From: a virus
Taxonomy: Duplodnaviria > Caudoviricetes
Strand: one strand, 5' to 3'
IMG/VR virus record: IMGVR_UViG_3300032312_002346
Span: 1-24,849 of that record
Length of the DNA stretch: 24,849 nt
Every line of letters starts with the position of its first letter. The first letter of the stretch is position 1. Below are positions 285 through 14,442 of this stretch, piece after piece. Both the position numbers and the translations under genes were made by a program. The notes beneath the pieces are model-generated. The model had not been told where the DNA came from, made no database searches, and saw only the letters and a program-made list of their open reading frames with translations.

Positions 285-659
285 TTAGAAGGCCACTGCT
301 TCTGCATTATCTGTTGTTGTCTTGTTTTTAGACAATTTTGTAATCTTTGAAAAATTATTAACTCTAACTTTTAGACTACTATGCTTAACTCCATCCTTTT
401 CCCAAGTATCATTTCTTAATGATCCTTCTACAAGAACCAGATCGCCCTTCTTAAAGGAGGATCCAATAATTTCAGCACCGGTATCCCATGCTTCACAATT
501 AATAAATGATGTTACCTTGTCCTTTTCTCCGCTAGACTTGGTATATTCACGAGAAACAGCAACAGTAAAATTAACTACCGATGTCTGCTTTCCACCAGTA
601 TTGACAACTCTTAGCTCAGGATCCCTTGCTAAATTACCACGCAAAATTGTAATATTCAT
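285..659 (-). CDS. ssb: Single-stranded DNA-binding protein (short, 124 aa)
   Basis: MNITILRGNLARDPELR, FTVAVSR, CEAW, KKGDLVLVEGSL and W.KDG OB-fold motifs; AAGGAG RBS at 674-669. Confidence 0.95.
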   Translation of the reverse strand: MNITILRGNLARDPELRVVNTGGKQTSVVNFTVAVSREYTKSSGEKDKVTSFINCEAWDTGAEIIGSSFKKGDLVLVEGSLRNDTWEKDGVKHSSLKVRVNNFSKITKLSKNKTTTDNAEAVAF

Positions 660-700: not shown

Positions 701-728
701 ATTATATCACAGGTACGCCCTGTGTCAA
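701..728 (-). promoter_or_regulatory. Sigma70-type promoter for ssb (TTGACA-N16-TATAAT, extended -10)
   Basis: Minus strand TTGACA CAGGGCGTACCTGTGA TATAAT. Both hexamers are perfect consensus, with TGn before the -10. The -35 overlaps the dnaE-C stop codon. Contains the inverted repeat CACAGG-N5-CCTGTG. Confidence 0.8.
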
Positions 729-2350
729 GATCTTGGAATAAAACATTTTTCTACGATAAAACCATCTTTCGTTTTTGCTCTATTCCCAATAAAAATTAAA
801 ACATTACCATTAAAAATATGAGGTTTATATTTAGTCCATGTTTCTGGAAAAAAAATGACCGAATCTAAATATCCTGTTTGATCCTCTATACTTACAAATG
901 ACATTTCTTGTCCTGGAGTTTTTCCTGATTTTGTTTTTATAGTATTGATATTTACTATTTCTCCAGCAATTATGATCTTTTCTGTTAAATTAGAATTTTT
1001 AAAAGTTTTACAGTCGCTATTTGTCATGGTTATATCATAGGTGTCTAGCTTAGAACAGCTAATAGATACTCCAAGCAAACTATTTTCCGAGTCAGAAAGC
1101 CATTCAATTTTATCTATTAATGAATATGGGGGTTTGTCTATTGTATTTAATATATTTATCAATACGTCTAATCTTTTCTTTGTAGCAAATTTATTTGATA
1201 TCATTAATTCGATAATATTTTTTAAACTTAATGTTTTATATTCATCAAGTAAATTTTCAAATTTTTCTAATTCTTTTTTTGTTAAAGATGAACATATGTC
1301 GAATTCAAACAACATTTCTGTTCTATTTTTTTTAAAGTAATCAAATGCCCCACAACTAATAAGAGACTTTGTGGCCGTTGAATTTATTTTTAATAGAACC
1401 TTTATGAGCATTTCTAACCAAGTTAATTTATTTATATCATAGTTTTTTGTTAAATCTAGTATTTTCTCAAATACTGATTGTCCAACACCTTTTATATCTG
1501 TCAATCCAAAATATATATCTTTATTTTTTAACATAAAGAATTTATTTAGATTTCTAAAGTCTGGGATTTTAACATTTATATCCATCTCATTTGCATTTCT
1601 AACTAACTCTTTTATTTCTTGCTGTGGATCTATTTTATCTTTTGCATATTTTAGATAAGAAGCAAAAAATATTCTTGGAAAATGAGCTTTAGAATACGCT
1701 GATAAATATCCATTTATAGCATAGCTTATAGAATGAGATTTGTTAAAAGAATATCTTTGACTTTTTTCGATCCATCCAAAAATTTCTTCAGCCTGACTTT
1801 CTGTAACAGTATTTAGTAATTTTGATCCTTCTATGAATCTTTTTTTTACTTTTGCCATTTCTTCTGGTTTCTTTTTACCAATAGCTTTTCTTAACATATC
1901 TGCTTCTTTTAAATCAAAACCAGCAATATCTTTAGCTATTTGCATAGCCTGTTCTTGATATATCATTTCTCCATATGTTGTCTTTAGCGATGGCTCAAGA
2001 GATGGATGGAAATAATCAACACTTTCTAAGGCATTTTTTTTATCTATATAATGATTAGTAACTGTTTTTCCATCTCTAATAGCTTCTAAACACCCAGGTC
2101 TAATAATAGCTATTAGTGCGGACAACTGCTCTATATTTTCAGGCTTTAATTTTTTAGCCATCATTTGACCTAATCTACTCTCTAATTGAAAACATCCTTT
2201 TGTGTTTCCTGAAGAGATTAGATCCCAAGTTTGTTTACAGTCCAGATTAATATTCTCTGTAGTTGGAGAAAATATTATCTGCTGTTCACCTTTTTCCGTT
2301 TTAATAATAGGAAATTTACAACCGCAATCAAATGCAAAAAAATCAGCCAT
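725..2350 (-). CDS. dnaE: DNA polymerase III alpha, C-terminal half (fingers, HhH, OB fold)
   Basis: GCFQLES, IIRPG, TYGEMIYQEQAM, ADMLRKAIGKK, YSFNKSH, FGLTDIKGVG, KTKSG..MSFVSIEDQTG...VIFFP. Lacks the PHP domain and palm catalytic aspartates. Confidence 0.93.
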   Translation of the reverse strand: MADFFAFDCGCKFPIIKTEKGEQQIIFSPTTENINLDCKQTWDLISSGNTKGCFQLESRLGQMMAKKLKPENIEQLSALIAIIRPGCLEAIRDGKTVTNHYIDKKNALESVDYFHPSLEPSLKTTYGEMIYQEQAMQIAKDIAGFDLKEADMLRKAIGKKKPEEMAKVKKRFIEGSKLLNTVTESQAEEIFGWIEKSQRYSFNKSHSISYAINGYLSAYSKAHFPRIFFASYLKYAKDKIDPQQEIKELVRNANEMDINVKIPDFRNLNKFFMLKNKDIYFGLTDIKGVGQSVFEKILDLTKNYDINKLTWLEMLIKVLLKINSTATKSLISCGAFDYFKKNRTEMLFEFDICSSLTKKELEKFENLLDEYKTLSLKNIIELMISNKFATKKRLDVLINILNTIDKPPYSLIDKIEWLSDSENSLLGVSISCSKLDTYDITMTNSDCKTFKNSNLTEKIIIAGEIVNINTIKTKSGKTPGQEMSFVSIEDQTGYLDSVIFFPETWTKYKPHIFNGNVLIFIGNRAKTKDGFIVEKCFIPRS

Positions 2351-3041
2351 TCAAAAAAGATCCTTTAAATTTTACTTTATTTCCCAAATTTCTGTGTAGC
2401 TTTAAAAATCTCATTAATATATTTGCAGTATCTTTAACATCTTTTAAAGCGTCGTGAGCACCTGTTTTGTCTATACCTAGATAGTCTCTAAGATTATCCA
2501 AAGTATAATTTTTTAATTCATTATTATTTTCAAACCAATAGAATATAACATTCATTATATCTACTACGTCTCTAGGATAAAATAAACTTGTTCTACCTTC
2601 TTTATTTATATTATTATATTTTTTACTTAATCTATCAATTATTCTTAGATCAAATCTATTAATATTATATCCGGCAGCAATTGGGGCTGAAAAGCAAGAT
2701 TTTTTACTATTGGATCTTATATGATACATATCAAGATATGAAACAAACATATTCCATCCAATTTCTTGTTTTTGAAAATTCTTCCAGTTTGCTAAGATCT
2801 TATTTTTATCGTTTCCTTGAACTTTAGCATGAAAATCCAAAACGTCACTATCTGAATAATCATATTCTGGATTACTCTCAAGAGCATCTGGTTTTAGATT
2901 AATATTAAATTCTGAATCTGGTATGATTTCTAGTTTAATAGGATCAACCATTATTGCAGCAATCTGAACCGGACTACAAACATCTGGGTTGCTTCCGTCT
3001 GTTTCAAGATCGAATACGCAAAATTTTTGAAAATTAGGCAT
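2343..3041 (-). CDS. DEDDh 3'-5' exonuclease (DnaQ/epsilon-like)
   Basis: ExoI FDLETDG, ExoII GYNINRFD, ExoIII AHDALKD. Confidence 0.9.
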   Translation of the reverse strand: MPNFQKFCVFDLETDGSNPDVCSPVQIAAIMVDPIKLEIIPDSEFNINLKPDALESNPEYDYSDSDVLDFHAKVQGNDKNKILANWKNFQKQEIGWNMFVSYLDMYHIRSNSKKSCFSAPIAAGYNINRFDLRIIDRLSKKYNNINKEGRTSLFYPRDVVDIMNVIFYWFENNNELKNYTLDNLRDYLGIDKTGAHDALKDVKDTANILMRFLKLHRNLGNKVKFKGSFLNG

Positions 3042-3213
3042 TAATCACCACTACAGTTTCATCAGAAAACATTTTCTTATCATTGATATTTTCCGATGCG
3101 TGAGCATTCATTGATTGGCAGCAACTAATTCTAACAGTGGCTACCTTTACGTATTCTGTGCCATTAACTACAAACTTATCACCGACATTCAGTTCTGAAA
3201 ATTTCTTTTGCAT
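3034..3213 (-). CDS. Small hypothetical protein, 59 aa (below the ORF-track cutoff)
   Basis: MQKKFSELNVGDKFVVNGTEYVKVATVRISCCQSMNAHASENINDKKMFSDETVVVINA. GGAG RBS; starts 2 nt after the dnaE-N stop and overlaps the exonuclease start by 8 nt, exactly filling the gap. Confidence 0.75.
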   Translation of the reverse strand: MQKKFSELNVGDKFVVNGTEYVKVATVRISCCQSMNAHASENINDKKMFSDETVVVINA

Positions 3214-3215
3214 GA

Positions 3216-5081
3216 TTATTCTCCATTTTTTAAAGATTCTGATATATTCATAACTTTATCTAACATCGCAACGCCTAAAATATCAAATTTTATTACCCCT
3301 AAAGATTCCAAATCTTGCATCTCCATTCCTGCTATTTTTTGATTATTTTTTGAATCATAAATCATTGGACATATATTATCTAGCATTTCATTACCGATAA
3401 CAACTCCAGCAGCATGTTTTGATTGATTAGATTTTGTTCCCTCTAAACGTATTGCTTGTTCAAATCTTTTAGCAAGTGGTCCTGCTAGAGAACCATCATC
3501 ACTAATATAGCACCATTCTTTAAGTTTGTCAACATTATTTTCTAGAGCCCATCTAATAATAGATGCTTCTCCGGTATCTTCTTTCATTTCTTGAAGTTCG
3601 TCAGCGATTTTAGCTTCGTCAGGTATATATTTTGTTATTTTGTTCATTTCTTCAAAACTTATATTATCATATACTCTTAAAACTTCTTTTAAGGCCCCTC
3701 GACCTTTCATTGTATTATAAGTTATCATTTGTGATACTTTATCATGACCATATTTATTTTTAATATATTCAATAATTTGTTCTCTTTTATTGATAGGAAC
3801 GTCAACATCAATATCTGGCATGGAAATTCTATCTGATGTATTTCTTCCAGCATTATAGAATCGTTCAAAAATTAAATCATAACGGATGGGGTCTATAGAT
3901 GTGATACCAATTAAATAAGAGACAAGACAGCCCGCAGCAGAGCCTCTGCCGGGACCAGGAAGCCAGCCTGACCGCCTAACCATATCTACGATATCGGAAA
4001 CTATTAGAAAATAACTGGATAATCCAGCACCCTGTAAAATTTCAAGTTCATATTTAATACGATCAACATATTTTTCTTGATCTTCTTTTGGGATAATATT
4101 AGCAATTTTATCTCTCCAACCATTCCTACACAACTGCCTGAGATATTCATCAGGATTATATGAATCAGGACAATCAAATGGTGGCAATATGGGCTTATTT
4201 AAGATATCATAATCTTCACATATTTCACTTATATAATTTGTATTTTCTATTTCAGACTGTAAATGAAGGTTTGACATTTCTTCGGGAGAAAGTATATGAT
4301 AATTATCAGACTTAAAAAAACAACCCATTGGTATATCTTCATTATTAATTAATTTTTTATTAATATCTATAAGAGTTGTTTTTAGATTATTGCACAATAA
4401 AATTCTTTGATCAACAGCGTCTTCTTTTTCGCAATAATGAGCATCTGGAGTGCATATGATTTTTGTATTAGTTTTTTGTCCAAGATCTCTAATTATAGCA
4501 GTTAATTCTTTTTGTATTGGTAGATTTTCTTGATCCATCAACTGTGTTTCTAAGAAAAAATTATCTTTTCCAAAGATATCTTTCATTTTAGAAATAAAAT
4601 TAATACCATTAGTTATCGCTTCATCTTTGGATGATTCTATTATATTAGATAATGTTGATCCTAAGTGACCACAAAATCCAATTATATTTCCATCTATAAA
4701 ATTAGCTAATTTATTAAAATCTAATCTTGGTTTATGGTAAAAATTTTCTTCTTTATTAGATTCAGAAATTATCTTAATCAAACTTTTCCAACCGTGTATA
4801 TTTTTAGCTAGAATAATAAAATGACTTAATTTACTATTCTCTTTGGTTTTAATATGAGAGTCATCGTTACTTATGTATAGTTCACAACCTAGTATGGGTT
4901 TTACTCCAGCTTTTTTCATTGCTTGATAAAACTGTACAGTTCCAGATATTGTGCCATGATCTGTTATGGCGCATGATTTTATACCAACTTTCAAACATCT
5001 ATCGGCTATTTGTTTTGGTTTGCTCAAACCGTCTAGAAGAGAATAGTGAGAATGTGCATGAAGACATGAATAATTAATCAT
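3216..5081 (-). CDS. dnaE: DNA polymerase III alpha, N-terminal half (PHP, palm, thumb)
   Basis: LHAHSHYSLLDG, ITDHG, PILGCE, FYHKPR, PDAHY, GPGRGSAAG, FERFYN, MPDIDVD, KHAAGVV, IKFDILG. All three catalytic Asp are present; stops 18 aa after KFDILG. Confidence 0.95.
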   Translation of the reverse strand: MINYSCLHAHSHYSLLDGLSKPKQIADRCLKVGIKSCAITDHGTISGTVQFYQAMKKAGVKPILGCELYISNDDSHIKTKENSKLSHFIILAKNIHGWKSLIKIISESNKEENFYHKPRLDFNKLANFIDGNIIGFCGHLGSTLSNIIESSKDEAITNGINFISKMKDIFGKDNFFLETQLMDQENLPIQKELTAIIRDLGQKTNTKIICTPDAHYCEKEDAVDQRILLCNNLKTTLIDINKKLINNEDIPMGCFFKSDNYHILSPEEMSNLHLQSEIENTNYISEICEDYDILNKPILPPFDCPDSYNPDEYLRQLCRNGWRDKIANIIPKEDQEKYVDRIKYELEILQGAGLSSYFLIVSDIVDMVRRSGWLPGPGRGSAAGCLVSYLIGITSIDPIRYDLIFERFYNAGRNTSDRISMPDIDVDVPINKREQIIEYIKNKYGHDKVSQMITYNTMKGRGALKEVLRVYDNISFEEMNKITKYIPDEAKIADELQEMKEDTGEASIIRWALENNVDKLKEWCYISDDGSLAGPLAKRFEQAIRLEGTKSNQSKHAAGVVIGNEMLDNICPMIYDSKNNQKIAGMEMQDLESLGVIKFDILGVAMLDKVMNISESLKNGE

Positions 5082-6163
5082 TCTGTAGTTCCTGGAGCCT
5101 TGTATTTACCAAAGGTGTGATTTGGGTGCTTGTACTGTTGTATCACAAAATCCATACCATGCAAGTCTATATCATATTTAACTTGTTCACATTTTGTCAT
5201 TGGAGCCCCGATATTACAGGTCTGTCCATCTCTATGTTCTATTTGTGATTCTATACTTGTATTATCGAACGTAGTTTTTCCAAAATGACATAGCTTATTA
5301 CACATCCAACTCTTTTTTAATTTAGGTCTTTTTGTATTTTTTACTATTTCAAATTTTTGTCTTAACATATCTTCTGTTTTTGGCAAATCTGATTTATCAA
5401 AACATATTGAAAATGGACCTCCATCATTAATAAAATATATAGAAAAAATAATATGATCTATATGAGGATACAGATGGCTAATAGCATAATGATAAATTCT
5501 TAACTGCGGATCTTTTTCAAGTTTTTCTTGTGTCTTTTCTTGGCCGGTTGCCCAGTCTAATCGTCTTCCTGTTTTCCAGTCTATAATTTCTATTGTTGAA
5601 TCATTAACCAGAGTTATAAGATCTATCGTTCCTTTAATTGCTAAATTACCCTCTAACTTACCATCCATAGTATCATAAGAATAATAAGACCATGGTTTTT
5701 TAATCTCTATATCAAAGTGTTGTTCTGGACACAATATAAATCTATTTCTTGGATCAAACATCCCATTATTAAATTCTATGGCTTTATATACCCAGCTATG
5801 ACAATCTTTATAGTCTTTTAAAGACCATTTATGATGAGAGTTAGATTCTGAATAATGCTTATAAACTTTCTCAATAATAGTATTTAAATTATAATTTGAG
5901 ATATTTACATCTCCTATAATATCATCATTAATAATATTAGTAGTATTATCTTGCTGGGCTTTTTTAATAACTGCTAGTATTTCTAATACTTTATGTACTA
6001 TTGTTCCTTTATCAGCCTTTTGTCCTGATGGACCTCTCCATCCAAGTACGTATTCCATAAAGTATTGCTGTTCACACATACTATGGGTATTATATGAACT
6101 ACTTCTAAAGTATGTGACTATAATCCTAGCACCTCTTGTAAAATGTCTTGAATTTTTAAACAT
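5078..6163 (-). CDS. PD-(D/E)XK RecB/AddB/Cas4-like exonuclease (true start may be near 6124)
   Basis: GTIVHKVLE, KGTIDL, IIDWKTG, QLRIY (RecB-family QxxxY). An N-terminal Cys (MCEQQY) plus a C-terminal Cys cluster (CNKLC...C...C) suggests an Fe-S/Zn staple. Confidence 0.8.
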   Translation of the reverse strand: MFKNSRHFTRGARIIVTYFRSSSYNTHSMCEQQYFMEYVLGWRGPSGQKADKGTIVHKVLEILAVIKKAQQDNTTNIINDDIIGDVNISNYNLNTIIEKVYKHYSESNSHHKWSLKDYKDCHSWVYKAIEFNNGMFDPRNRFILCPEQHFDIEIKKPWSYYSYDTMDGKLEGNLAIKGTIDLITLVNDSTIEIIDWKTGRRLDWATGQEKTQEKLEKDPQLRIYHYAISHLYPHIDHIIFSIYFINDGGPFSICFDKSDLPKTEDMLRQKFEIVKNTKRPKLKKSWMCNKLCHFGKTTFDNTSIESQIEHRDGQTCNIGAPMTKCEQVKYDIDLHGMDFVIQQYKHPNHTFGKYKAPGTTE

Positions 6164-6870
6164 TGATCATATATAGACAAATCATCATTTTTAACAACAG
6201 CATCAAAATTAGACCAATCATAATTAGTTTCGTCTAGTACTGTTTCGCTTTCATGCTTAGAAGAATATTTGTCTCGTGTCAATCTAATAACTTTACCATT
6301 ATTCTTTTTTATACTATCAATTTCATCAGGAAATCTGCAATCTGTTATAATAGCTAATTTAGGACTATCTATTTCGATTTTTTTAATAACAGCAGATACC
6401 CAAACATCTTTTTTCATTTTGCGAAAAATTCCAGTACCGACATATTCCATAACTTCTCTGGCTGTCATATAATCTGTTTTTTCGCCATCATATCCTGGCA
6501 TATCTTTCCAACTTAAATTTGTTAATGTATTTTTATCATTATCTGAACCATAACACTGCTCATGAGTTAAGCCCAAAATATTCATACATATATCTTTTTT
6601 AAGAGGATCTGCAAAACTATATAGTCTTATATTTGGATTTAAAACATCAATAGCTTTATTTATTAAAAAATCAGATGAACCAATAGAATTTACCATATCA
6701 AATTTACCAGCATAATTTCCATCACCGAACAAATCGGAAATAATAATATCTCCGTTATCATCAATATGTATCTTATTTGATACGCCTAAATTAGCCATAA
6801 ATAAAGATATTATAAAATTACCAGAAGTTGTCTTGCCTGATTGTTTTTTACCGGATATTCCTAATATCAT
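6118..6870 (-). CDS. Deoxynucleoside monophosphate kinase (phage type)
   Basis: ILGISGKKQSGKT P-loop, SFADPLK, TAREVMEYVGT, IITDCRFPDE, HESE. Confidence 0.85.
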   Translation of the reverse strand: MILGISGKKQSGKTTSGNFIISLFMANLGVSNKIHIDDNGDIIISDLFGDGNYAGKFDMVNSIGSSDFLINKAIDVLNPNIRLYSFADPLKKDICMNILGLTHEQCYGSDNDKNTLTNLSWKDMPGYDGEKTDYMTAREVMEYVGTGIFRKMKKDVWVSAVIKKIEIDSPKLAIITDCRFPDEIDSIKKNNGKVIRLTRDKYSSKHESETVLDETNYDWSNFDAVVKNDDLSIYDQCLKIQDILQEVLGL

Positions 6871-6871
6871 T

Positions 6872-8026
6872 TTAATTCCTAATTTGTGGTAATATGCTTG
6901 TTTTTATTTCCTCAACAGACATGGCTGCAACGTCTTCTTTTTCAATAATAATATTATGTATATTATATGTTTTATGACATTTAATCTTTATTTGTTCCGC
7001 TGCTTTTCTTCCTGCTTCATCGTTATCCATTATAGTGATAATAGTCATAGCTCCAGAAATATCAATTAACATTTTTTGTCTGTCACTAAGAGAAGAACCG
7101 AATATAGCAACACTATTGTGTATCCCTGCTTCTTCTAGTCTCCATACATTTCCAGGACTCTCAACAATAATTATTATATTATCAGACTTAATAAAATTTT
7201 TGGCATTCCAAAAATTATAAAGATGTTCCTCGCTCTTAAAACCATAACTATGTTTCCATTTAGAATATTTCCAAATATCATTTCCTGGACATTGATTGTT
7301 TGGATCATGATAACTTTTACATTTGTCGCATTTATCGAATAAACTTCTGCCACTACAGCCTACCATATATTTATTATCAATATCGTATATTGGAGCAACA
7401 GCCCTTCCAAACATTTCTTTGCCTTCTTTCAGACATTCTCCAATATCATATTTTTTTAGTATGTCTGGAGAAAAACCTCTGTTTATAAAATAGTTTGAAG
7501 GTATATTTAAATTTTGTCTAATAAAATCTTTAGATACTTTTGTTATTTCTTTTTTAGAGTCATTACTCAAATACTTGACAGTATTAATAAATGTTGATTT
7601 CTCTTTTGATTTTTTTGATACTTTAAAATCATTTAAGTCCTGTTGTAAAAAATCAGTAGCAAAGTTTATAGCTTCTTGAAAAGATATAACTTCATCACCA
7701 TGATTATTCCAATTTTTTTCACTATGAGATAAACATCCTCTAATAAAACCTATAATAGATCCTTTAAAGGTTTCTTCACAGTTGTGTGTTCTACATTTCC
7801 AGTTTCCTCTATATGAGTCTCCTTGATGATATAGATTAAAAGCAGAATCATTATCTCCGCCGTGTATAGGACAACTCATAGCTATCATCCTACCCATATC
7901 TCTATATTCATCTATTCCTAAAGAGATCAATAAATTTTCAATATCATCACACAAAGCATCTGAAATGAGCTTTAGTTGTGATTGATCATACGAATGGAAT
8001 TTCTTCTTTTTGTTCATCGTTTTCAT
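6872..8026 (-). CDS. dnaG: DNA primase, DnaG-type (CHC2 Zn finger + Toprim); start 8026 or 8017
   Basis: CPIH...WKCRTHNC zinc finger, YFINRGF, GCSGRS, LYN, IVESPGNV, MDNDEAG (DxD), KEDV. Directly downstream of the helicase. Confidence 0.85.
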   Translation of the reverse strand: MKTMNKKKKFHSYDQSQLKLISDALCDDIENLLISLGIDEYRDMGRMIAMSCPIHGGDNDSAFNLYHQGDSYRGNWKCRTHNCEETFKGSIIGFIRGCLSHSEKNWNNHGDEVISFQEAINFATDFLQQDLNDFKVSKKSKEKSTFINTVKYLSNDSKKEITKVSKDFIRQNLNIPSNYFINRGFSPDILKKYDIGECLKEGKEMFGRAVAPIYDIDNKYMVGCSGRSLFDKCDKCKSYHDPNNQCPGNDIWKYSKWKHSYGFKSEEHLYNFWNAKNFIKSDNIIIIVESPGNVWRLEEAGIHNSVAIFGSSLSDRQKMLIDISGAMTIITIMDNDEAGRKAAEQIKIKCHKTYNIHNIIIEKEDVAAMSVEEIKTSILPQIRN

Positions 8027-9455
8027 TTAATACAAAGCCTGATGCTTGAGATTTATTATTGTGAGAAAGTTCTAGTTTAGTTTGTCCTTCTGTAACCTTC
8101 GCACACCAACCTTTCATGTGACAATTAATATAATCGTTATCATCCAATCCTCCACCATGTCTACTGATAATAGGTATTAATTTTCTATTACCAGAACTTC
8201 CACCGTCTTCGGCTATTTCTTCATCGCTCTTTCTTTTAAAGATAGTAAAATTACTACATAGCCAAATTATTCTATCAGATCCGCTTGCAGTATCCGTACT
8301 TTCTTTTGTTATACCATCTCTGTTTAATTGTATAAAAGCTACAATAGGTACTTTATATTTTACAGCAAAATTATGTAATGCTGTCATCATAAATCCAAGA
8401 ACCTGATATTCTTTCATATCCTGAGATAAACCGGCAGAATCCATTAATTTCAAATAATCATAAAATATAACGCACTCTTTTGCTGAACCATCATCATTTA
8501 ATCCTACCTCTTTTACTATCCATCTTCTCATAATAGCTAATTGTTCATCAAAAGGCTTACCAGCTATTACTTTATAATAAAGAGGAGTCTGTTTTAATTC
8601 CTGAACAAAATCTTTTATCTTTGAAGAATGTATAGGAGAGTCCGAAAACTTTCCTGTTTCAATTTTATTTATCTCTATTTCTGTGCCCATAGCTATTAGT
8701 CTATGAATATGGTCATTTTTTGACATTTCTGTATCCATATTCAAAACTGGTATTTTTAATTTATTAGCAATATGCAAACCCATATTATCTGCTAAAAGAG
8801 TCTTACCAGTTTTTGGACGAGCCGCTATAACATTAACAGTACCTTTTCTAAGACCTCCTCCTATTGCTTGGTCGTATACTGGAAAACCAGTAGATATGCC
8901 AACTTGATCAATAGGATTTTCTTGGAGATATTCTATGTATTCTTCTATTCCATGGCTGATACATTCAGGAGAATTATCATTATCTTTACTTAATGAAGAC
9001 ACAAAGTTAAAAACAGAATCTTCTGCAATACCCAATATAGACGCAATGGTTTCTGATCCATTAACATCTAATAGTTTTTCTTGAGTATTTTCTAATTCTT
9101 TATGTAGAGATCTGGCTATTTCTAATTTTTTGATTTTTGCAGAAAATTTTCTGATATTCTCTAGATTAACTGGAAAATCTTTAATAGCCTTTAAATGTTG
9201 GGCCTCTTCTTTTTTTGATAAAATATGAGACAATCCCAAGTCTTGTGCTACTGAATAGATAGATGCTATGTCTATCTCGCTTTGAGATGGATTGTTTTCT
9301 ATAATAGATTTTAAACACTTAAAAATAAATTGATTACTATCAATTGTAAATGTGGATTCTTCTACTATGTCAGAAATTTCCAAAAAAGCTTTTTCACCAT
9401 AATGGAACATACCACTCAATACAGCTCTTTCAGCTGATGGATCACACAAAATCAT
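7986..9455 (-). CDS. dnaB: Replicative DNA helicase DnaB
   Basis: AERAVLS, GISTGF, IAARPKTGKT (Walker A), TEMS, FYDYLKLM (Walker B), QLNR. Start reassigned to MILCD (9455), which removes the overlap with the upstream ORF. Confidence 0.92.
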   Translation of the reverse strand: MILCDPSAERAVLSGMFHYGEKAFLEISDIVEESTFTIDSNQFIFKCLKSIIENNPSQSEIDIASIYSVAQDLGLSHILSKKEEAQHLKAIKDFPVNLENIRKFSAKIKKLEIARSLHKELENTQEKLLDVNGSETIASILGIAEDSVFNFVSSLSKDNDNSPECISHGIEEYIEYLQENPIDQVGISTGFPVYDQAIGGGLRKGTVNVIAARPKTGKTLLADNMGLHIANKLKIPVLNMDTEMSKNDHIHRLIAMGTEIEINKIETGKFSDSPIHSSKIKDFVQELKQTPLYYKVIAGKPFDEQLAIMRRWIVKEVGLNDDGSAKECVIFYDYLKLMDSAGLSQDMKEYQVLGFMMTALHNFAVKYKVPIVAFIQLNRDGITKESTDTASGSDRIIWLCSNFTIFKRKSDEEIAEDGGSSGNRKLIPIISRHGGGLDDNDYINCHMKGWCAKVTEGQTKLELSHNNKSQASGFVLNENDEQKEEIPFV

Positions 9456-9462
9456 TTTAACT

Positions 9463-9849
9463 TTAGCCTGCTGATGTTGAACAATTATTACATTTATATC
9501 TTGCGGAAGATTCATTAACCAACGACGGGCTAACATCCTCTTCCTTGCCGCAGACGCGACACTTCACTCTCATAGTCTCAAAATCTCTCGCCCTGGCAAC
9601 AGGGGCATGTTTTGACAATTTTTTATCAATTTCGATATCATCCTTATGCATACCTTTTTCTGACATAGATTCAAATTTATTTGGTCTTTTTTGAGAAAAA
9701 TTTTTCTTACCATCCTTAGTCCTGATAGGATTAACGAAAGACTCATCAGTATCTTCTGATTGCTGTTTTTGTTCAGGAATAAGCTGTTGCAGGACAGATA
9801 TTAGCTGTTTTATTTGGTCTGGATTTTTCATTAATTCATTAAGATCCAT
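9463..9849 (-). CDS. Hypothetical protein with C-terminal Zn ribbon
   Basis: CRVC and CNNC pairs; tightly packed between neighbours. Confidence 0.7.
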   Translation of the reverse strand: MDLNELMKNPDQIKQLISVLQQLIPEQKQQSEDTDESFVNPIRTKDGKKNFSQKRPNKFESMSEKGMHKDDIEIDKKLSKHAPVARARDFETMRVKCRVCGKEEDVSPSLVNESSARYKCNNCSTSAG

Positions 9850-10327
9850 GTTTCACCTTCGTTTTTTGAATGGATAAGATAATATCGGATAGATTTTTAA
9901 TATTATTAGCCAAATACGATAATCTATCAGTTCTTTGTTTAGCGTATTTTTTAATATTGCTTAGAGATAAAGCTTTATCATTATGTTTAATAGCCTGTAA
10001 AGATTTTTCTATAAATCCATAACCCTTATAATTATTAATTTCATCAGCTATTGTTTCTTTGATATACTCTTCAGCCCAATTATATCTAGCAATTTCTCTA
10101 TTAATAGTTCTTTGTAGATGAAATGCAAATTGACCAAGCCTATAAGATATTTGAGCACAATCTTCTGGTGATAGTTTTTCTAGTGCGTCTCTATTCATCG
10201 TTAAATAATCATTTAACTCTGATTCTGGTAATAATGATGGTGAATATTTGGGCAAAGATAGGCTCTGCTCATATTCATCAAGAATAGAATCCCAGTATTG
10301 AAGTTCTTCTTTAGATGTTTTGTTCAT
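9839..10327 (-). CDS. Helical/coiled-coil protein, possibly a UvsY-like recombination mediator
   Basis: 162 aa from MNKTSKEE (GGAG upstream). Appears all-alpha; size and position two genes after recA resemble UvsY. The function is inference only. Confidence 0.55.
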   Translation of the reverse strand: MNKTSKEELQYWDSILDEYEQSLSLPKYSPSLLPESELNDYLTMNRDALEKLSPEDCAQISYRLGQFAFHLQRTINREIARYNWAEEYIKETIADEINNYKGYGFIEKSLQAIKHNDKALSLSNIKKYAKQRTDRLSYLANNIKNLSDIILSIQKTKVKHGS

Positions 10328-10727
10328 TAGAAATTTTCTTTCTCCACTCTTCCATGCTTTCGTTATATGGTAGTACAATTTGTTTTATACTATTTATTTC
10401 ACACCATTCTGTTTTGTCTCTGTCTCTTTTTTGAGATTTTATAAAAGCTAAAACATTATTATGATAAAATGGTATAAATTTATAATGTTGCTCGCCATGA
10501 ATTTCTATGCATGTTTTTTTTAATGGTAAATAAAAATCCAAAAATAAAGTTTCGGATCTTCTTATGGAAATAGGAACCTCTTCTAAAATTTGTAGGGTAG
10601 GAAATTCTTTTGCTAAGATATTTCTTGCCTGCAAATGAAGACTGGACTTATTGAGCATTCTACCCTTTGCAATATGACCTGTCAAGTGCCAAACGGAAAG
10701 ATTTCCATCCAAATCCTTTACTGTCAT
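10311..10727 (-). CDS. PD-(D/E)XK endonuclease, Vsr/DUF559-like
   Basis: LFLDFYLP, CIEIHGEQHY, RDRDK, WCEINSI..LPY pattern. Confidence 0.75.
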   Translation of the reverse strand: MTVKDLDGNLSVWHLTGHIAKGRMLNKSSLHLQARNILAKEFPTLQILEEVPISIRRSETLFLDFYLPLKKTCIEIHGEQHYKFIPFYHNNVLAFIKSQKRDRDKTEWCEINSIKQIVLPYNESMEEWRKKISNEQNI

Positions 10728-13502: not shown

Positions 13503-13879
13503 TATCTGATTTCTCTTTGAGCATTATGAAACCAGGTTGGATTTTCTGTTTTTAGAAAATTAATATACTTATTAAATATAGATTCTGTTACTTCGCTAAA
13601 ATTATTTGTATTTTTACAAACATTATTGATAAATGATTTATTATTTTTATTTGGATCAAATGGATTCAATATGTTTTTATTTGGATCTGTTCTAATATAA
13701 AACGATGGATACAATATATTATTATCTAGGCTTTTACGCTTTTTATTATTAACAATTTTAGCATAAGTAAATTCTGTTTCTGAATCTGACCTAGGATATC
13801 CGTTTTCATCAATAAATGATTGATATTTATTTGTTGTATAATATTGTGCTGAATTATTCATTTTAAATACGTGTTGCAA
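13502..13879 (-). CDS. Hypothetical protein, paralog of 12480..12857 (start 13879 or 13861)
   Basis: Same shared motifs as its paralog. ATG at 13861 (MNNSAQ) is an alternative start, 4-nt overlapped with the HNH stop. Confidence 0.8.
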   Translation of the reverse strand: MQHVFKMNNSAQYYTTNKYQSFIDENGYPRSDSETEFTYAKIVNNKKRKSLDNNILYPSFYIRTDPNKNILNPFDPNKNNKSFINNVCKNTNNFSEVTESIFNKYINFLKTENPTWFHNAQREIR

Positions 13880-14442
13880 ACCTCAACCAAGTCCTTATTT
13901 GAATAATCTATATTAGACAAGTCCTTGGCCCAAGGCAAGTAATCAATAGAATATTTTGGCTGTATAGGGATATTTATTAATTCCATGCTAGCTTCCTCTG
14001 GTGTCCTATTTCCTTTTTTAAAGTTACATCTTACACAAGCTGTTACTACATTATACCAATTTGTACATTGATGTCTTTTACCTTTAAATTTAGATTTTGG
14101 TACAACATGATCATATGTTAATTCTGATATAATAAATTTTTGACCACAATATTGACAAGTGTAATTATCTCTTATATAAAGATTTTTTCTAGAAAAATTA
14201 ATTGGTTTATTATAAAGATTAAAGAATTTATTTGTTTTTGCTATAAGAGGTAGTGGATATTGCTTACCACAGGCTCCTTGAATAAATTTATTTTTATAAT
14301 ACTCTATTATTTCTATAGAAGAGTCATAATTTGTATTATATCTTAATGACCATACTATTGCCTTTTGCCAATTTATAATTTTTAATGGTGTAAAATCAGC
14401 ATTTAGCAATAGACATCTAAGATTTTCCGTTTGATTGTTCAT
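13858..14442 (-). CDS. HNH endonuclease (HNH_5/McrA-like)
   Basis: CLLLNADF.PL, RDNYTCQYCG, LTYDHVVPKS, WYNVVTACVRCNFKKG. Confidence 0.9.
   Translation of the reverse strand: MNNQTENLRCLLLNADFTPLKIINWQKAIVWSLRYNTNYDSSIEIIEYYKNKFIQGACGKQYPLPLIAKTNKFFNLYNKPINFSRKNLYIRDNYTCQYCGQKFIISELTYDHVVPKSKFKGKRHQCTNWYNVVTACVRCNFKKGNRTPEEASMELINIPIQPKYSIDYLPWAKDLSNIDYSNKDLVEVCNTYLK

Follow-up and report, generated by a model that had tools for sequence, protein, structure and literature searches.

A phage DnaE-type polymerase encoded by two intein-free genes and probably assembled from two chains

Can a replicative DNA polymerase of the DnaE type be made when its gene stops after the palm and resumes 865 nucleotides (nt) further on? 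The question is raised by the virus record IMGVR_UViG_3300032312_002346 of IMG/VR (Duplodnaviria; Caudoviricetes), a 24.8-kb stretch of DNA that we analysed over its whole length of 24,849 nt and call the window. A full-length dnaE, from the PHP domain to the OB fold, is cut after the palm into two genes, dnaE-N and dnaE-C, which like all genes considered here lie on the minus strand. We regard it as probable that the polymerase, cut at the palm/fingers border, assembles non-covalently from the two proteins and serves as the replicative enzyme; the exonuclease encoded between the halves likely acts as its proofreader, and the arrangement likely goes back to one fission followed by at least two re-fusions.

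By every sequence test but chain continuity, the locus encodes a C-family polymerase of the DnaE type. dnaE-N (3216..5081, 621 aa) holds the PHP domain, the palm and thumb and one further helix, whereas dnaE-C (725..2350, 541 aa) starts with a three-stranded cap and continues with fingers, HhH and OB fold. The Pfam families PF02811, PF07733, PF17657 and PF14579 are matched above cut-off on the halves, the OB fold (PF01336) just below it, and the fold match of dnaE-C is Pol III alpha. The halves had been described as complementary and non-redundant, and they do tile DnaE models end to end: N covers 3-572 and C 571-1022 of TIGR00594, and 43-613 and 615-1054 of PHROG 405, while in the alignment with Taq Pol III alpha N runs up to residue 625 and C starts at 646. 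As originally noted, dnaE-N ends 18 residues past the third catalytic Asp motif, KFDILG, and the YSFNKSH site (dnaE-C 200-206) is uninterrupted. The cut lies in a loop of variable length, presumably just past the first helix beyond the palm if we take the Taq domain limits to apply. The original prediction also gave dnaE-C about 30 extra N-terminal residues. The extra leader exists, but only some 20 residues are a net gain, the N tail of 18 and the C lead of 47 residues together replacing a stretch of 40-46 residues in 11 bacterial-type DnaEs. The PHP ligands (H8, H10, D17, H42, E67, H87, H139, D213 and H215) and the palm aspartates (D423, D425 and D600) are all on dnaE-N, the latter being found in all phage rows scored, and the fingers motifs are intact on dnaE-C. 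What departs from a one-chain C-family polymerase is the stop codon and the 865 nt between the dnaE-N stop and the dnaE-C start, which are occupied by a 59-aa open reading frame (ORF) and a 232-aa exonuclease.

The break is shared by relatives of the window. Among 249 relatives of the C half in IMG/VR the best 80 were kept. In 79 of these close loci both halves are present, and all 79 share the breakpoint; BLAST detects the exonuclease in every one of them and the microprotein in 78. When distant and fused proteins served as seeds for three more scans, the set grew to 300 loci (L001-L300), namely 273 split, 1 fused and 26 incomplete; since these loci are redundant and similarity-ranked, their counts give no population frequency. 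Removing identical rows left 190 distinct split loci, in which N ends 12-40 residues past the third Asp motif and the halves are separated by 143-6821 nt, with the three frames used 69, 39 and 82 times. A locus search seeded with the protein P0008 returned no matches, and the matches listed among cultured phages (40 of 1317 and 40 of 1437 records) all fell below 35% identity. In cellular genomes, the 80 loci kept from 9 of 64 database parts comprised 76 fused, 3 incomplete and 1 split. This sole split cellular locus (L343, NZWA01000066.1) carries the whole split module on a 9.4-kb contig within a Flavobacteriales metagenome-assembled genome; it is probably a mis-binned phage contig and offers a weak hint of the host.

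One might still suspect a broken and decaying gene, or an assembly error, in a phage that uses the polymerase of its host. In favour of this suspicion, the only contig that spans the whole stretch, without differences, may be the window's own source, and other sequencing runs, among which no RNA run is listed, gave short pieces of which none was counted as bridging a junction. Against it, the 190 distinct split loci have the break in common, even those only about 40% identical. Moreover, the ratio of nonsynonymous to synonymous substitution rates (dN/dS) in 12 pairs of relatives was 0.02-0.11 for N and 0.01-0.10 for C, i.e. at most 0.11 for both halves, and the catalytic residues are intact. 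The ratio was 0.01-0.11 for the exonuclease (computable in 11 of the 12 pairs) and 0.02-0.23 for the microprotein (8 of 12), dS exceeding 1 in many of the pairs. Judged by these ratios, all four genes are under purifying selection. Misassembly is contradicted by the independent assemblies and the split is neither error nor decay, which leaves this explanation with a practically negligible chance. Fused relatives, which the original prediction named as a warning sign if accompanied by decay here, do exist, but they are nested within the split lineage and the window shows no decay.

If both halves are real genes, are their products joined afterwards? RNA splicing, ribosomal bypass or some protein ligation of a new kind could restore an ordinary one-chain DnaE, and such a possibility gains some credit from a lineage rich in inteins at other dnaE sites. 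The original prediction had both halves free of inteins, and a Pfam intein/Hint scan of the four proteins bore this out with 0 matches at E<=1, although the same scan detected intein halves in three relatives (L044, L169 and L174). There are no intein halves at the break and the break is not at FNK|S. An Rfam scan of positions 1900-3700 found no intron family, its one U6atac match being at chance level and below the gathering score. The gap holds a DEDDh exonuclease and the 59-aa ORF, not a homing endonuclease; it is wholly coding, under purifying selection, and across loci it spans 143-6821 nt in all three frames. In addition, C halves carry conserved leader residues that are not in fused forms. 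Two C-type halves (P0066 and P0069) even bear an N-terminal NADAR or Macro domain, domains that are both linked to ADP-ribose removal; an added domain in this position is expected of a free chain end. We thus consider a covalent joining of the halves very improbable.

Inteins do occur elsewhere in the lineage. Classical split inteins with free-standing endonuclease-like ORFs are found in L044 (3327-6406), L169 (9956-12951) and L174 (7198-11884), at other dnaE sites, after N residue 380 and at the FNK|S site of C, and they come on top of the intein-free split or of the fused form. A second break of the N half, just ahead of the catalytic D-x-D motif, was seen in L016 (4140-7133) and also in L076, L077, L079 and L080, with no Pfam intein match in L016 and L076. 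In L016 the pieces are separated by an endonuclease-like ORF, and the piece that follows the break is extended by about 88 aa; loci of this type likely encode a three-chain polymerase. L158 and L160 have a longer continuous insert at the same site.

How, then, would two chains make one polymerase? In the DnaE of E. coli and Taq, the palm aspartates coordinate the catalytic metals, and the incoming deoxynucleoside triphosphate (dNTP) is bound by the fingers. By analogy, N would supply the metal-binding aspartates and the thumb, and C the dNTP-binding fingers, the HhH and the OB fold. The chains would meet via the same palm/fingers surface as in one-piece DnaE, and the active site would exist only once both had met; activity would need both chains because the palm aspartates and the fingers are on different ones. 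Non-covalent assembly is likely, and the simplest solution, because no splicing element was found and the gap varies in length, frame and gene content. The halves are complementary, conserved and under purifying selection, as expected of a split replicase. Contigs related to the window reach 200-244 kb, and in five CheckV-complete relatives of that size PolB (0/5) and PolA (0/5) are absent, as is a beta clamp gene (none in 5/5), while in each of them (5/5) a single palm match and a single fingers match lie in different frames; these absences concern the complete relatives rather than the window's own genome. Hence, the intein-free two-chain C-family replicase originally proposed agrees with the conserved break, the purifying selection, the intact catalytic residues and the lack of PolA and PolB in relatives, the assembly itself being what we infer.

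When did the gene break? One-piece relatives, 37-48% identical to the C half, were found among longer proteins, and we built separate trees for the N and C cores, with bacterial-type DnaE as outgroup and with a mixture model also run. Near-copies and gap-rich rows were dropped (289 to 121 rows), and L157, misaligned in the C tree, was left out of the sets for the approximately unbiased (AU) tests. In both trees the fused rows form two main groups nested among split ones, every one of the deepest phage rows sampled is split, and 3 changes are needed within phage rows. The AU test rejected the split rows as one clade (p=7e-5 for N, p=2e-4 for C) and also the fused rows as one clade (p=2e-53). 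Without re-fusion, the gene must have split 12 times at one site (bootstrap 9-15), whereas 4 changes in total suffice otherwise. The fused groups differ in their linkers (37-42 versus 32-35 residues, with 40-46 in bacterial-type enzymes) and in exonuclease position, the exonuclease gene being outside the fused gene in each; the fused group nearest the window is known from one locus. Because the fused rows are nested, the AU tests reject the simpler groupings, the change counts are unequal and the linkers and exonuclease positions differ, the trees suggest that the gene probably split once at the root of the phage lineage and re-fused at least twice afterwards. The opposite history, in which one-piece ancestors were independently cut many times at a weak loop and the fused relatives are ancestral, draws on the one-piece outgroups, the weak support of deep nodes and the leaders that vary among split lineages, with and without Cys-x-Cys. 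Yet, it requires the gene to have been cut 9-15 times at one and the same site, with the gap almost invariably containing the same exonuclease gene, and it is at odds with the all-split deepest rows and with the unequal linkers of the fused groups, mostly shorter than the bacterial-type stretch. We find it improbable.

The exonuclease gene (2343..3041, 232 aa) encodes a DEDDh 3'-5' exonuclease with the DnaQ-like motifs D-x-E, D and H-x4-D, matches PF00929 above cut-off and epsilon models weakly, and has its residues D11, E13, D131, H196 and D201 invariant in 66 aligned rows. It lies in the gap in 187 of the 190 distinct split loci, and directly upstream of dnaE in four of five fused loci (L174, L302, L305 and L307). 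Furthermore, it is kept in a sublineage in which the PHP ligands or the PHP part itself are gone from 24 of 32 rows. This position and this retention favour a proofreading role, and the exonuclease encoded between the halves likely acts as a proofreader. Loci such as L173, L181, L203, L225 and their relatives have a degenerate or detached PHP domain, the exonuclease between the halves and no cysteine cap.

Alternatively, and compatibly with a two-chain polymerase, only N and C could form the enzyme, with the PHP domain proofreading and the exonuclease and microprotein as independent neighbours engaged in nucleotide salvage, recombination or host DNA breakdown. The window's PHP ligand set is kept, with His replacing the Cys of bacterial rows, and the ligands are intact across its subclade. 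Only 114 of the 190 loci have the microprotein in the gap, and it went undetected in the five fused loci that were examined. In the fused locus L301 the exonuclease is downstream of dnaE, about 2 kb away, and around a distant homologue in Bacteroides phage DAC19 the flanking 9 kb in each direction contain no dnaE match. These facts make the alternative plausible, though the presence of the exonuclease in nearly all gaps, next to most fused genes and where PHP was lost inclines us against it. The predicted complex of N with the exonuclease scored 0.00 in two runs, controls not folded, a score that weighs neither way. As a possible subunit, proposed earlier, the exonuclease has good support from gene order only, and PHP could do the proofreading.

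The microprotein (3034..3213, 59 aa) is a real gene by its conservation: its profile matches 162 clusters, and a Cys-Cys pair recurs in 127 of 130 short homologues. The predicted structure is nearly all-beta, a small beta-barrel with the Cys-Cys pair at a hairpin tip (predicted local distance difference test, pLDDT, 92.8), the best fold matches being of the generic SH3/KOW/Tudor type (Z<=5.2). The theta subunit (HolE) has a helical fold, and a theta-like subunit was ruled out by this nearly all-beta prediction. No Pfam, PHROG or NCBIfam family was found, and the ESM Atlas gave only unnamed viral clusters, under 0.9. Since 76 of the 190 distinct split loci have no copy of it in the gap, the split enzyme does not generally depend on it; of the subunit role once suggested for it, an accessory one at most is left.

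A further feature is the start of C. The leader, about 20 net extra residues, is predicted by AlphaFold2 to form three short strands (pLDDT 81-84) and carries the cysteines C9, C11 and C38. All 32 dereplicated split rows with the Cys-x-Cys motif also have C38, the motif is absent from 36 split rows, and it occurs in 0 of the 30 fused rows scored. In the window subclade, a small folded hairpin would thus cap the free start of C. It is a reasonable guess that the three cap cysteines may bind metal; no fourth ligand clearly co-varies with them. We rejected a metal site shared by the microprotein Cys-Cys and the C-half Cys-x-Cys, as the two do not strictly co-occur: 16 dereplicated rows have both, 16 Cys-x-Cys only and 4 the microprotein only. 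The most ambitious view would have a modular replicase, two-chained from the outset and repeatedly re-fused, in which the window subclade makes a four-subunit enzyme of N, C, exonuclease and SH3-like microprotein, a C9/C11/C38 metal site on the C half, completed in trans by another subunit, replaces the lost peptide bond, and assembly or redox state switches replication on. We give it only a small chance.

Some observations weigh against the overall picture of a two-chain replicase with its own proofreader and a history of fission and re-fusion. For the AU tests LG+G4 was applied to 52 rows, a subset picked after the first tree had been seen, and the deep branches are poorly resolved. The ribosome-binding site at the start of dnaE-C is weak, with a Shine-Dalgarno-like word at -16..-4 in 8 of 50 relatives. 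Many split lineages lack the cysteine cap, which a split DnaE can thus do without. In the window subclade 15 of 16 rows have their PHP ligands intact; therefore the DEDDh protein need not be the only proofreader and could have another job. Finally, 3 of the 190 loci, all of them deep-branching, show no exonuclease match between the halves: in L162 (7702-12379) the halves overlap directly, whereas 8-9 other ORFs separate them in L158 (2365-12541) and L160 (64-12778).

The surroundings are those of a replication module. The window encodes a ribonucleotide reductase, PhoH, RecA, DnaB, a primase, a dNMP kinase, a PD-(D/E)XK nuclease, the dnaE region and a single-stranded DNA-binding protein (SSB). 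The genes for the DnaB helicase, Toprim primase, dNMP kinase and PD-(D/E)XK nuclease occupy 5078..9536 (-), upstream of dnaE-N, and the SSB gene (285..659, -) is directly downstream of dnaE-C, the same place as in most relatives. From the upstream genes to dnaE-C, the junctions are a 4-nt overlap, a 2-nt gap and two 8-nt overlaps. These overlaps suggest the translational coupling claimed originally for the whole block, but such coupling is not conserved, since more than 1.5 kb separates the halves in 36 of the 190 distinct split loci. A perfect sigma-70 consensus (12/12, extended -10) at 728-701 (-) overlaps the dnaE-C stop, upstream of SSB, and the site scores 11 or 12 in 58 of 75 relatives. 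Another promoter-like site (11/12), at 3532-3504 (-) within dnaE-N, lies about 290 nt ahead of the microprotein gene; it scores 11 in 22 of 79 relatives and may merely reflect codon use. Two free-standing homing-endonuclease-like genes, at 10311-10727 and 13858-14442 (-), are close to recA and phoH.

Is such a polymerase new? With the one-piece DnaEs that work with a separate epsilon (E. coli, 2HNH and 5FKU; T. aquaticus, 2HPI and 3E0D; M. tuberculosis, 5LEW and 7PU7) the window enzyme shares domain order, catalytic aspartates, PHP ligands and fingers motifs. It differs in having two chains, in a His for Cys at one PHP ligand and in ending after the OB fold, and its complete relatives lack the clamp gene; its exonuclease, a DEDDh one, resembles epsilon models weakly. 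The cyanobacterial split DnaE and the "fractured" phage dnaE are likewise encoded by two genes, the fractured case with a free-standing gene between them, and are re-joined by split inteins, with a homing endonuclease (Dassa et al. 2009, PMC2677866); the window differs from them in the lack of an intein, the break site, and the exonuclease and microprotein in the gap. Closer in principle are split family-B polymerases. The phage proteins gp43A and gp43B are reported to co-purify and to be active (PMC2988022), and the DNAP-N and DNAP-C of PhiKZ form a stable 1:1 complex (PMC13648687). A two-chain replicative polymerase assembled without splicing is, by this analogy, most likely the working principle here too, although polymerase family and fold are different, and theirs were tested at the bench whereas the window enzyme is known from sequence. 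The group 2.2 jumbo phages also have a C-family polymerase in two proteins, a minimal split Pol III alpha core whose genes lie far apart and which accompanies a PolB replicase, with no intein mentioned in the available part of that paper (Iyer et al. 2021, PMC7824862). The window polymerase, in contrast, is full length from PHP to OB and cut after the whole palm, in a lineage whose complete relatives have neither PolB nor PolA. The parts available of PMC12926913, PMC3201878 and PMC4889955 describe no split C-family phage polymerase, and full-text searches, with supplements and most subscription papers outside their scope, found no description of the window layout. Hence, intein-free split PolB and minimal split Pol III were known already, and the present layout was not found in the literature searched.

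The published natural splits of full-length DnaE that we found are repaired by inteins, and the characterised DnaE replicases are one chain. If our reading is true, a large phage lineage in which no other polymerase was detected would show that the active site of a C-family polymerase can be built in trans, with catalytic aspartates and fingers on different chains, and phages would offer a natural two-component polymerase for structure work and for the design of switches. Annotation pipelines would label split dnaE genes as fragments and miss them. For the evolution of this phage lineage, the split and re-fused versions of an essential gene that likely underwent fission and then repeated re-fusion can be compared directly.

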